Below, piece after piece: positions 53,618 through 55,495 of a DNA stretch of 64,000 bases (positions are counted from its first letter, which is position 1; the number at the start of each line of letters is the position of its first letter). The position numbers and the translations under genes were made by a program. Source of the stretch: Escherichia coli (GTDB taxonomy: Bacteria > Pseudomonadota > Gammaproteobacteria > Enterobacterales > Enterobacteriaceae); the NCBI RefSeq assembly GCF_048403405.1, contig NZ_CP183129.1, one strand, 5' to 3'. The notes beneath the pieces are model-generated. The model did not search any database, had not been told where the DNA came from, and was given only the letters and a program-made list of their open reading frames with translations.

Positions 53618-53871
53618 TCGCTAAATAATACAGCAACCTTTAATAATCTTCTGATGAATAAAGATTATCTCATATATTAATTTTATGAGATTTTTTTAGG
53701 ATTATATCAAGGAGAAGAAACGAACTTATTAAGCTAGAATAGCCACGGGTGCTTGAGACTGTTTGTCTCAGGTATTCACCGAAAGGCAGACAGAGAAAAG
53801 CCCCACCTGACTATAAATCAAAAGTGTACTGCACCCATTTTGTTGGACGATGAAATGGAATAGCCCCTAAT

Positions 53872-54393
53872 ATGTCAAAGCCAAAATACCCTTTTGAAAA
53901 GCGCCTTGAAGTCGTGAATCACTACTTCACAACTGATGATGGTTACAGGATCATCTCGGCACGTTTTGGTGTCCCCCGAACCCAGGTCAGGACATGGGTT
54001 GCCCTCTATGAAAAACATGGAGAAAAAGGTTTAATTCCCAAACCTAAAGGCGTTAGTGCTGATCCAGAGTTGCGTATTAAGGTCGTGAAAGCTGTGATCG
54101 AGCAGCACATGTCCCTTAATCAGGCTGCTGCTCACTTTATGCTTGCTGGTAGTGGTTCTGTAGCCAGGTGGCTGAAGGTCTATGAAGAGCGCGGAGAAGC
54201 TGGTTTACGCGCGCTCAAGATTGGCACCAAAAGAAACATTGCAATATCAGTTGATCCAGAAAAAGCGGCATCAGCATTGGAGCTGTCAAAAGACCGACGC
54301 ATTGAGGATCTTGAAAGGCAAGTTCGATTTCTTGAAACGCGGCTTATGTATCTAAAAAAGCTGAAAGCCTTAGCTCATCCCACGAAAAAGTAA
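53872..54393 (+). CDS. insJ: IS150 transposase OrfA
   Basis: 173-aa ORF MSKPKYPFEKRLEVVNHYF..., recognised as IS150 InsJ. Confidence 0.9.
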   Translation: MSKPKYPFEKRLEVVNHYFTTDDGYRIISARFGVPRTQVRTWVALYEKHGEKGLIPKPKGVSADPELRIKVVKAVIEQHMSLNQAAAHFMLAGSGSVARWLKVYEERGEAGLRALKIGTKRNIAISVDPEKAASALELSKDRRIEDLERQVRFLETRLMYLKKLKALAHPTKK

Positions 54394-54635
54394 AAGTACT
54401 CAACGAGCTAAGGCAGTTTTATCCTCTTGATGAGCTTCTCAGGGCTGCGGAGATACCGCGCAGTACGTTTTATTACCATCTAAAGGCTCTCAGCAAGCCT
54501 GACAAGTATGCGGACGTTAAAAAGCGTATTGGTGAGATTTATCATGAGAATAGAGGCCGATACGGATACCGTAGGGTAACGCTGTCTCTTCATCGAGAAG
54601 GGAAACAGATTAACCATAAAGCTGTTCAGCGCCTG

Positions 54636-55241
54636 ATGGGAACCCTCTCACTTAAGGCAGCGATTAAGGTCAAGCGATACCGCTCTTACAGAGGAGAGGT
54701 AGGGCAAACCGCCCCCAATGTTCTCCAAAGAGATTTCAAGGCTACGCGGCCAAACGAGAAGTGGGTTACCGATGTTACTGAATTTGCAGTCAATGGGCGC
54801 AAGCTGTATTTGTCTCCAGTAATAGATCTCTTCAACAACGAAGTTATTTCTTACAGCCTTTCGGAAAGACCAGTGATGAACATGGTCGAGAATATGCTCG
54901 ATCAGGCATTCAAAAAGCTTAATCCTCACGAGCATCCTGTTCTGCACTCTGACCAGGGATGGCAGTATCGTATGAGAAGATATCAAAATATCCTTAAAGA
55001 ATATGGTATTAAACAAAGCATGTCCAGAAAAGGCAATTGTCTGGATAATGCTGTGGTGGAGTGTTTCTTTGGAACCTTAAAATCGGAGTGTTTTTATCTT
55101 GATGAGTTCAGTAATATAAGCGAACTGAAGGATGCTGTTACGGAATATATTGAATACTACAACAGCAGAAGAATTAGCCTGAAATTAAAAGGTCTGACTC
55201 CAATTGAATATCGGAATCAGACCTATATGCCTCGTGTTTAA
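54636..55241 (+). CDS. insK: IS150 transposase OrfB (DDE domain); coordinates are the ORF from first ATG, the protein is normally made as an InsJK fusion by -1 frameshift from about 54390
   Basis: reading frame open upstream of 54636 (..PRSTFYYHLKAL..); DDE motifs such as LHSDQGWQY. Confidence 0.85.
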
Positions 55242-55342
55242 CTGTCCAACTTTTTGGGGTCAGTACAAAGTGAGGCTACCCTATGCCTGAACACCATAAG
55301 GTTAGCCTCTTACTCGTTGGAAATCAACACAGGGGGCTGGGA

Positions 55343-55495
55343 ATGCCGCAGAAATATAGATTACTTTCTTTAATAGTGATTTGTTTCACGCTTTTATTTT
55401 TCACCTGGATGATAAGAGATTCACTGTGTGAATTGCATATTAAACAGGGGAGTTATGAGCTGGCGGCATTTTTAGCCTGCAATTTGAAAGAGTAA
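55343..55495 (+). CDS. hokA: Hok-family small membrane toxin (type I toxin-antitoxin toxin)
   Basis: 50 aa MPQKYRLLSLIVICFTLLFFTWMIRDSLCELHIKQGSYELAAFLACNLKE; lies 76 bp from the IS150 right end. Confidence 0.8.
   Translation: MPQKYRLLSLIVICFTLLFFTWMIRDSLCELHIKQGSYELAAFLACNLKE

Follow-up and report, generated by a model that had tools for sequence, protein, structure and literature searches.

IS150 within the hokA/sokA toxin–antitoxin locus of an Escherichia coli strain: a probable motif-guided insertion independent of the K-12 allele

Introduction

A stretch of 64,000 nucleotides from the Escherichia coli contig NZ_CP183129.1 (assembly GCF_048403405.1), here called the window, carries a complete copy of the insertion sequence (IS) IS150 within hokA/sokA, a type I toxin–antitoxin locus comprising the toxin gene hokA, the overlapping frame mokA and the antisense RNA gene sokA. 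The element physically disconnects the canonical regulatory circuit of this locus and leaves the toxin open reading frame (ORF), mokA and the predicted sokA promoter intact. Taken together, the comparisons presented here make it very probable that IS150 split hokA/sokA independently of the insertion in strain K-12, that a short target motif guided it to a hotspot, and that normal regulation of the locus has been lost.

The IS150 hotspot at hok/sok loci is already known, and the feature in the window is a real, widespread and RefSeq-annotated polymorphism of a kind that has been described before. The nucleotide-exact homology of the insertion points in the hok paralogues, together with the motif YRRGGC (Y, pyrimidine; R, purine), may be a modest addition to this picture.

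IS150 divides the hokA/sokA module

IS150 occupies positions 53825–55267 of the window (plus strand; 1443 bp) between two copies of the trinucleotide AAG, at 53822–53824 and 55268–55270. After a gap of 75 nt (55268–55342) follows the intact toxin gene hokA (50 amino acids; 55343–55495, plus strand), the product of which matches the Pfam family HOK_GEF (2.3e-23, 81.9 bits) and the NCBIfam HokA equivalog model (131.9 bits, cut-off 89). Its RefSeq protein accession is identical to that of an O157:H7 strain with an empty site. These coordinates and profile matches agree with a preliminary description of the window, which had reported an intact 1443-bp IS150 with AAG on both flanks and a 50-residue hokA starting 76 bp downstream. 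The ORF list also contains mokA, an intact frame of 70 amino acids (55283–55495, plus strand) that is in frame with hokA. Upstream of it lies the hexamer TGAGGC (55271–55276, plus strand), which is both an instance of YRRGGC and the site of the mokA Shine–Dalgarno (SD) sequence, GAGGC at 55272–55276.

The break in the module is apparent from matches to the Rfam model RF01794 (gathering score 59). In a strain with an empty site, the model gives a single complete match of 119.6 bits that extends from the predicted 5′ end of hokA mRNA to the hokA ATG. In the window this match is broken by IS150 into a left part of 83.2 bits, starting at 53747, and a right part of 42.6 bits, ending at 55345. The left match (53747–53901) is still above the gathering score because the 3′ half of the model aligns weakly to IS150. 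The earlier claim that the insertion breaks a hok/sok-type regulatory module is borne out by this comparison. RF01794 is named 'sok antitoxin' and matches the hok-sense strand over the whole hok leader to the hok ATG; Sok RNA corresponds, as reverse complement, to no more than the middle third of its span.

Three parts of the module are found to the left of IS150: the hokA promoter, a 78-nt leader segment and the 3′ half of sokA. The putative promoter has a −10 hexamer TAGAAT (53735–53740, plus strand), placed from the start of the RF01794 match and lying 6 nt 5′ of the predicted mRNA start; its −35 region is poor, and IS150 now stands between it and hokA. The leader segment (53747–53824, plus strand), counted from the start of the same match, represents the first 78 nt of hokA mRNA and is severed from mokA–hokA, the insertion point falling at about +78, within the second hairpin of the leader and on its 3′ arm. 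The sokA 3′ fragment (53790–53824, minus strand) comprises the 3′ arm of the Sok hairpin and the U-tail. It is the counterpart of the 35-nt 'sokA pseudogene' b4614 of MG1655, which abuts the MG1655 IS150, and matches it except for an extra A (see below).

The right side of IS150 retains the predicted sokA promoter together with about 25 nt of sokA, both the SD and the ATG of mokA, the hokA gene and the fold-back element of the 3′ region. The sokA 5′ fragment (55268–55293, minus strand), delimited by alignment with sokB and sokE, holds the single-stranded recognition tail and the 5′ hairpin arm and is joined to its promoter; we infer from this alignment that sokA starts at about 55291–55293. 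The predicted promoter (55299–55327, minus strand) is intact, with a −10 hexamer TAACCT (55304–55299), a −35 hexamer TTGATT (55327–55322) and a 17-nt spacer, and it aligns hexamer for hexamer with the regions 5′ of the annotated sokB and sokE starts of MG1655.

In the sokB/sokE alignment, each Sok RNA has a short 5′ tail followed by a single long hairpin, with GCCUC, the complement of the mok SD, in the 5′ arm; the reconstructed sokA sequence is predicted to fold as SokB and SokE do. IS150 sits 1 nt upstream of the mokA SD; read on the opposite strand, this point falls within the 5′ hairpin arm of the Sok terminator. No contiguous sokA is present in the window: the promoter and the 5′ ~25 nt are kept, and the remainder is separated from them by the 1443-bp interruption. 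The preliminary description had placed the element on the Sok promoter; that promoter is intact at 55299–55327, and what is cut instead is the transcribed body of sokA and the leader at about +78. By the refuting condition that it had set itself, intact mok/sok elements in the interval 55268–55342, part of its reading fails: this interval holds the complete predicted sokA promoter together with the SD and ATG of mokA and the region where hokA translation starts. The module is split all the same.

A further, predicted connection, between the two ends of the hokA transcript, is interrupted as well. The hokA 3′ region (55504–55557, plus strand) contains a hairpin at 55504–55523 and a fold-back element at about 55546–55557, CTCATTGCACCC, which is complementary to the mRNA 5′ end at 53747. 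In the predicted minimum-energy fold of the reconstructed 368-nt hokA mRNA, the 5′ end GGGUGCUUGAG pairs with CUCAUUGCACCC near 55546–55557. Fold-back of this kind, with the 5′ and 3′ ends paired, is classic for hok mRNAs. The predicted partners lie on opposite sides of IS150 in the window, at a distance of 1.8 kb.

The region of the mokA start and Sok recognition (55272–55295) is hypervariable. The window reads GAGGCTACCCTATGCCTGAACACC and O157 reads GAGGCCCCTCTATGTATAGACACC, with about 7 differences in 24 nt, and the adjoining sequence is near-identical. Both alleles are found uninterrupted as well as with IS150 (L014 versus L016).

The junctions were compared with empty sites by way of other carriers, which read ATCA-AAG-IS150-AAG-TGAGGC, the same flanks as in empty sites. 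This identifies the AAG repeat as a 3-bp target duplication, within the 3–4 bp of the IS150 group. The left flank of the window (53818–53824) reads ATCAAAAG in place of ATCAAAG, and the nearest uninterrupted alleles equal the window flanks except for this one A. Since empty sites and other carriers of the insertion share ATCAAAG, the extra A is secondary and strain-specific; it could be due to slippage, to a junction artefact of integration or to a homopolymer sequencing error. A carrier of hokB::IS150 (L011) has two extra A's at the corresponding junction.

Anatomy and coding capacity of the element

The IS150 copy has the ends and size of the IS150 group, starting with TGTACTG and finishing with CAGTACA over ~1.44 kb. 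Its imperfect terminal inverted repeats are 31 nt long and 71% complementary (left repeat 53825–53855, right repeat 55237–55267). Compared with the K-12 IS150 it has 9 differences over 1443 positions (99.4% identity), and RefSeq annotates it as an IS3-like element IS150 family transposase.

The first frame, insJ (orfA; 173 amino acids; 53872–54393, plus strand), was taken from the ORF list and carries the Pfam domain HTH_28. A −1 frameshift signal (54354–54414, plus strand) overlaps its end, with the slippery sequence A AAA AAG at 54354–54360 and a stem-loop with arms at 54367–54376 and 54405–54414. In an inverted-repeat search the 10-bp stem was found to be perfect (10/10 complementary). A slippery A AAA AAG with a downstream stem-loop is the established programmed −1 frameshift signal of IS150. 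The fused InsJK transposase frame (456 amino acids; 53872–55241, plus strand) has no internal stop and matches HTH_28 and rve in Pfam (rve 5.8e-29), as well as the NCBIfam model for IS3-family transposases (413 bits, cut-off 160). This layout, in which two overlapping ORFs are fused by a −1 shift into an OrfAB protein with a helix-turn-helix (HTH) and a DDE (rve) domain, is that of the IS150 group. Two substitutions, S221G and H378Y, set the window InsJK apart from the common IS150 protein. H378Y affects the catalytic core, at a point between the second D and the E. Both are private to the window copy and occur in none of the ~30 other IS150 copies compared. In several hok-associated copies, orfB is called as a truncated gene of 121 amino acids, and these were considered as dead elements. 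Translation ruled this out: because no translated copy has an internal stop, the truncated calls are gene-caller artefacts.

Within the right end of the element, a terminator-like hairpin is predicted on the minus strand (55190–55224), with a 15-bp stem followed by TTTAATTT, and faces transcription that reads into IS150. A promoter scan of the right end did not find a consensus outward promoter.

Probable consequences for regulation of the locus

In the account favoured here, an intact IS150 would have transposed into hokA/sokA and duplicated AAG 1 nt upstream of GAGGC. Normal hok regulation would thereby become inoperable in each of its parts, namely fold-back inhibition, 3′ processing, mok-coupled translation and the stable Sok RNA of 57–60 nt, and any residual hokA transcription would hinge on read-through from IS150 or on an outward promoter. 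Judged from its organisation, the split locus is most likely inactive or nearly neutral. As summarised in bioRxiv 10.1101/2025.08.07.668861, Pedersen and Gerdes (1999) reported that post-segregational killing could not be brought about by intact chromosomal hokA; HokA is also reported to be toxic on overexpression. We infer that an inactive or nearly neutral locus is consistent both with this killing incompetence and with the high frequency of the insertion in the population (see below). For the window itself the insertion matters little, being a common polymorphism at a locus known for IS150 insertion, the uninterrupted form of which is reportedly inactive in killing.

A distinctly unlikely alternative is that the locus has been rewired and not silenced. 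An IS150 promoter or read-through would drive a leaderless mokA–hokA transcript, a chimeric antisense RNA would repress mokA, and an altered toxin–antitoxin pair would survive. As modelled, the chimera would consist of ~25 nt of SokA and ~85 nt of IS150 and would be ended by the inward-facing IS150 terminator, for which the 15-bp stem followed by TTTAATTT on the minus strand (55224–55190) is the candidate; the predicted 112-nt RNA retains the single-stranded Sok 5′ tail. In favour of this proposal, IS150 has left undamaged, on its right side, the predicted sokA promoter with the Sok 5′ tail, the SD and start codon of mokA, and hokA. In published RNA data, an outward promoter at the IS150 3′ end raised transcription downstream of the element in 12 of 55 cases (PMC11101190), and the sokE::IS150 allele had a phenotype compared with sokE+ (PMC11551753). 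Every natural hok insertion examined has the orientation seen in the window, and mutation-accumulation lines use both arms of the palindrome. Against this, the effect of the outward promoter was modest and inconsistent (PMC11101190), the uninterrupted chromosomal hokA is reportedly killing-incompetent (bioRxiv 10.1101/2025.08.07.668861), and the bias in orientation may stem from sampling, the queries being co-linear with the window.

A probable target motif shared by hok paralogues

Further IS150 copies with hok-like flanks, returned by the similarity search, were inspected together with interrupted hokB and hokE loci. IS150 lies at the homologous nucleotide of hokB, hokC, hokE and plasmid hok, each time co-directional with hok and with a 3-bp duplication 1 nt before G(A/G)GGC. 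Duplication and motif read AAG-TGAGGC in hokA, ACC-CGAGGC in hokC, CCA-CGAGGC in plasmid hok, AAC-CGAGGC in hokB and CCC-TGGGGC in hokE. For the four loci compared in this respect (hokA, hokB, hokC and hokE), the duplication equals the local uninterrupted sequence.

IS150 contexts were also sampled independently of hok, through exact look-ups of the InsJ and InsK proteins. These gave hokA, hokB and hokE again, an ldr locus (CGG-TGAGGC) and eight other sites; a look-up with the InsK variant of an AlpA-adjacent copy returned that one site only. Over 14 independent IS150 sites, the consensus of the right-end flank is Y-R-R-G-G-C. Counted from the duplication, GGC takes positions +4 to +6 at 11 of the 14 (binomial P about 1e-17) and in six of the nine non-hok sites (P about 2e-9). 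A two-sided palindromic target consensus was sought over the same 14 sites, and the left-end flank was without information. The targets of IS911 resemble its own terminal repeats; for IS150, inspection by eye revealed no such similarity between targets and terminal repeats.

These comparisons indicate that IS150 prefers NNN-YRRGGC on its right-end side, a motif that every hok locus offers at the outer end of the Sok-terminator palindrome. Because each of them carries YRRGGC at this position, hok loci are natural hotspots for IS150.

The same target is met in a second, unrelated type I toxin family, since insertions in ldr/rdl also precede TGAGGC: in the ldr/rdl toxin–antitoxin cluster between chaA and kdsA of other E. 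coli genomes (chaA-ldr-kdsA; L020/L035), IS150 has a duplication of CGG or CCGG followed by TGAGGC. In another E. coli genome (L037, AP027666), an IS1 end lies against the left end of IS150 at the trg–hokB hotspot with only CAAC between them, so that a second IS event, nested or adjacent, took place there. A broader proposal would combine the asymmetric target with the rewiring considered above, hok/sok and at least one ldr locus serving as landing pads at which insertion rewires the toxin system through the outward promoter and a chimeric Sok RNA. To this we give a low probability; if true, hok/sok landing pads would soak up a large share of IS150 transpositions.

Shewaramani et al. named trg/mokB an IS150 hotspot (PMC5289635). 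Among ~45 IS150 insertions in their mutation-accumulation lines, ~14 were at hokB, hokC or hokD (PMC5289635 dataset S2). In detail, ten lie at trg/mokB, divided between two positions that are 15 bp from each other and oppositely oriented; mokC/nhaA accounts for three more, and hokD and chaA/ldrC for one each. Their coordinates were mapped onto REL606 for hokC, those for trg/mokB being given in the REL4536 system. The hokC insertion at 16972–16974 falls on the exact ACC site of a natural isolate, and that at 16992–16994 on the other arm of the Sok-terminator palindrome, beside GGGGC. Durrant et al. placed four hok homologues near hotspots of mobile-element insertion in E. coli (bioRxiv 10.1101/527788). 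In evolved lines, IS150 insertions recur at hokC, hokE and mokB, and the ldr locus was hit as well; Finn et al. read these insertions as adaptive loss of redundant functions (PMC5419217).

It is very unlikely that the recurrent position reflects selection for loss of a toxin system in place of a target preference of the transposase, even though authors of evolution experiments have read hok/sok and ldr insertions as adaptive loss (PMC5419217; bioRxiv 10.1101/527788). The same sites are used in mutation-accumulation lines under minimal selection (10 of ~45 IS150 insertions at trg/mokB). Moreover, loss of function would accept many positions and both orientations, and the five paralogues share a nucleotide-exact position and a fixed orientation; YRRGGC also flanks non-hok sites. 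The nucleotide-exact recurrence in five paralogues and the YRRGGC motif would give the published 'hok/sok hotspots' a simple sequence account, where adaptive loss has been invoked elsewhere.

Independence from the K-12 insertion and population frequency

IS150 is also present between glyS and hokA in K-12 (DH1 and MG1655), in the opposite orientation and with insK next to glyS. In the window, insJ is proximal to glyS, mokA is intact and the AAG duplication is present. Relative to the empty site, the K-12 allele lacks a target duplication, has an extra T at the glyS-side junction and has lost ~39 bp (GAGGCC...GCCTCT), including the mokA SD, the mokA ATG and the sokA −10; K-12 mokA is annotated as a pseudogene with its start deleted. 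A full-length co-linear match in K-12 had been expected. K-12 matched over IS150 only and on the opposite strand, from which the inversion and the deletion were recognised. Judged by these junctions, the window insertion is an event independent of that in K-12, and, as the two differ, no K-12 ancestry is implied.

The contrary reading, that both are the same insertion and mark shared ancestry in a non-K-12 background, is extremely unlikely. It could draw on the presence in both of a 1443-bp IS150 between glyS and hokA, with glyS-side junctions within 1–3 nt of each other, but it is already refuted by the junction sequences: the K-12 element is reversed and lacks a duplication, the ~39 bp with the mokA SD and ATG are missing, and the IS copies differ at 9 positions. 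In addition, the two alleles fall into distinct sets of genomes (901 and 1,640). The preliminary description had equated the window insertion with that at K-12 hokA, and its remark on strain ancestry, which was based on that identity, falls with it.

Population counts were made over 5,426 complete E. coli genomes. The window-type allele, scored as a co-linear match, was present in 901 (17%) and the K-12-type allele in 1,640, together 47% of the sequenced genomes; the hokA/sokA site was uninterrupted in 2,801. In strain ST540 (L036, CP007265), the IS150 at hokA is oriented as in the window, but its duplication is 5 bp long (AAGTG), and ~2 of 9 evenly sampled carriers have a 2-nt length difference that matches an AAGTG duplication. 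On its junctions, the AAGTG allele is a further independent insertion within the window-type class, and, by the same comparison, IS150 has entered hokA at least three times independently. The presence of 'IS150 at hokA' does not mark K-12, as two unrelated alleles bear this description; orientation and junction should therefore be checked before ancestry is inferred. Unlike the K-12 allele, that of the window has mokA, hokA and the sokA promoter unbroken, which makes it the better natural material for studying an IS150-split hok locus.

The K-12 glyS-side junction coincides with the AAG/AAGTG hotspot. The hokA-side junction (L001/L008) reads TAC-TCGTTGG, the bottom strand of which, GTA-AGAGGC, is a near match to the IS150 motif in the K-12 orientation. 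These junctions suggest that the K-12 allele arose either by one insertion-plus-deletion bridging two hot sites or by two insertions followed by collapse of the resulting long palindrome. Its structure fits the 'IS150-del' class (insertion and deletion without a duplication) of long-term evolution lines (PMC11708052), and a single event of this kind is a simpler account than a model of two insertions flanking the mok-SD hairpin.

Least credible of all is that homologous recombination or gene conversion carried IS150 from one hok leader to another, although these leaders are 60–85% identical and the IS copies in hokC, hokE and plasmid hok are identical. Each locus has its own 3-bp duplication (AAG, ACC, CCA, CCC and AAC), which in hokA, hokB, hokC and hokE matches the local uninterrupted sequence, the mark of separate transpositions.

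Several findings weigh against the overall account of a motif-guided, silencing insertion. The right part of the locus is structurally complete, comprising the promoter of sokA and the recognition tail of Sok as well as mokA and hokA, and the outward promoter described for IS150 (PMC11101190) here points into mokA–hokA, so that residual or altered activity could persist. YRRGGC occurs 182 times in the 64-kb window; for this reason the motif is to be regarded as a preference and not as a sufficient signal, and it does not by itself explain the strength of the hotspot, for which the palindrome or the upstream AT-rich stretch are candidate further determinants. The 14 target sites are a small sample, five of them being homologous hok sequences. 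Finally, carriers of the insertion differ among themselves, with several sequence variants of IS150 and two alleles of the right flank, as either recurrent insertion or recombination would produce.

Neighbouring genes and window context

The window is 100% identical to the corresponding sequence of E. coli strain 4621 (NZ_CP103479), which was isolated from blood in Houston. Downstream of hokA and convergent to it lies cspA (55683–55895, minus strand), covered by a match to the Rfam cspA thermoregulator (55628–56055, 501 bits). This gene is named cspE in many RefSeq genomes, including DH1 and strain 4621 (WP_000014594.1), and cspA in others; we take it to be cspA, with inconsistent naming, because MG1655 and the thermoregulator match agree on this. 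An ORF of 23 amino acids on the minus strand (55472–55543) overlaps the 3′ end of hokA; it bears the name ysaE in the K-12 annotation, and strain 4621 lists it as a hypothetical protein.

Elsewhere in the window, two IS1397 copies (14153–15501 and 19393–20741) with identical transposases bracket yiaW-yiaV-yiaU-yiaT in inverted orientation. One of them abuts a three-gene island (20856–25278) encoding GH127, major facilitator superfamily (MFS) and AraC proteins. Both the IS1397 copies and the GH127 island had been noted before and are indeed annotated in the RefSeq record NZ_CP103479. A gene for an RHS core protein and a downstream Imm57-family immunity gene lie between yibH and yibF (1267–6755).

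Comparison with known systems

The nearest known counterpart is sokA::IS150 of K-12 (b4614 and b4647 of MG1655; IS150 at 3720633–3722075), which shares with the window the element, the locus, the split sokA and glyS-side junctions 1–3 nt apart. It differs in being inverted, in lacking a duplication and in the loss of ~39 bp with the mokA SD and ATG and the sokA −10; the window allele has a clean AAG duplication and retains all of these elements. Disruption of MG1655 sokA by IS150 was noted in the 2024 Nucleic Acids Research study that found sokE::IS150 in >400 isolates (PMC11551753). The sokE::IS150 allele, also carried by XL1-Blue, has IS150 at the homologous nucleotide, with the transposase co-directional with hok and a 3-bp duplication, in another paralogue. 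The trg/mokB and mokC/nhaA hotspots of E. coli B derivatives (PMC5289635, PMC5419217) likewise involve the homologous nucleotide of the hok leader and 3-bp duplications, again in other paralogues. Mutation-accumulation lines additionally use a mirror-image site in the other arm of the Sok palindrome, in the opposite orientation; this site is unused in the window.

Other elements show related preferences. IS186/IS421 is another IS found recurrently next to hok genes, beside hokC and hokE in K-12 and, among the sequences compared here, downstream of hokC/hokE in L004, L009 and L021. It differs from IS150 in its position downstream of hok, its membership of the IS4 family and its target. IS1397 and ISKpn1, which belong to the IS3 family, resemble IS150 in preferring defined positions in short hairpin-forming palindromes, a preference determined by the transposase (PMC1525189 and references therein). 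Their targets are the palindromic units of repetitive extragenic palindromic (REP) sequences and bacterial interspersed mosaic elements (BIME), whereas IS150 uses Sok terminators, and its putative recognition of YRRGGC is looser (3 of the 14 sites are without the motif).

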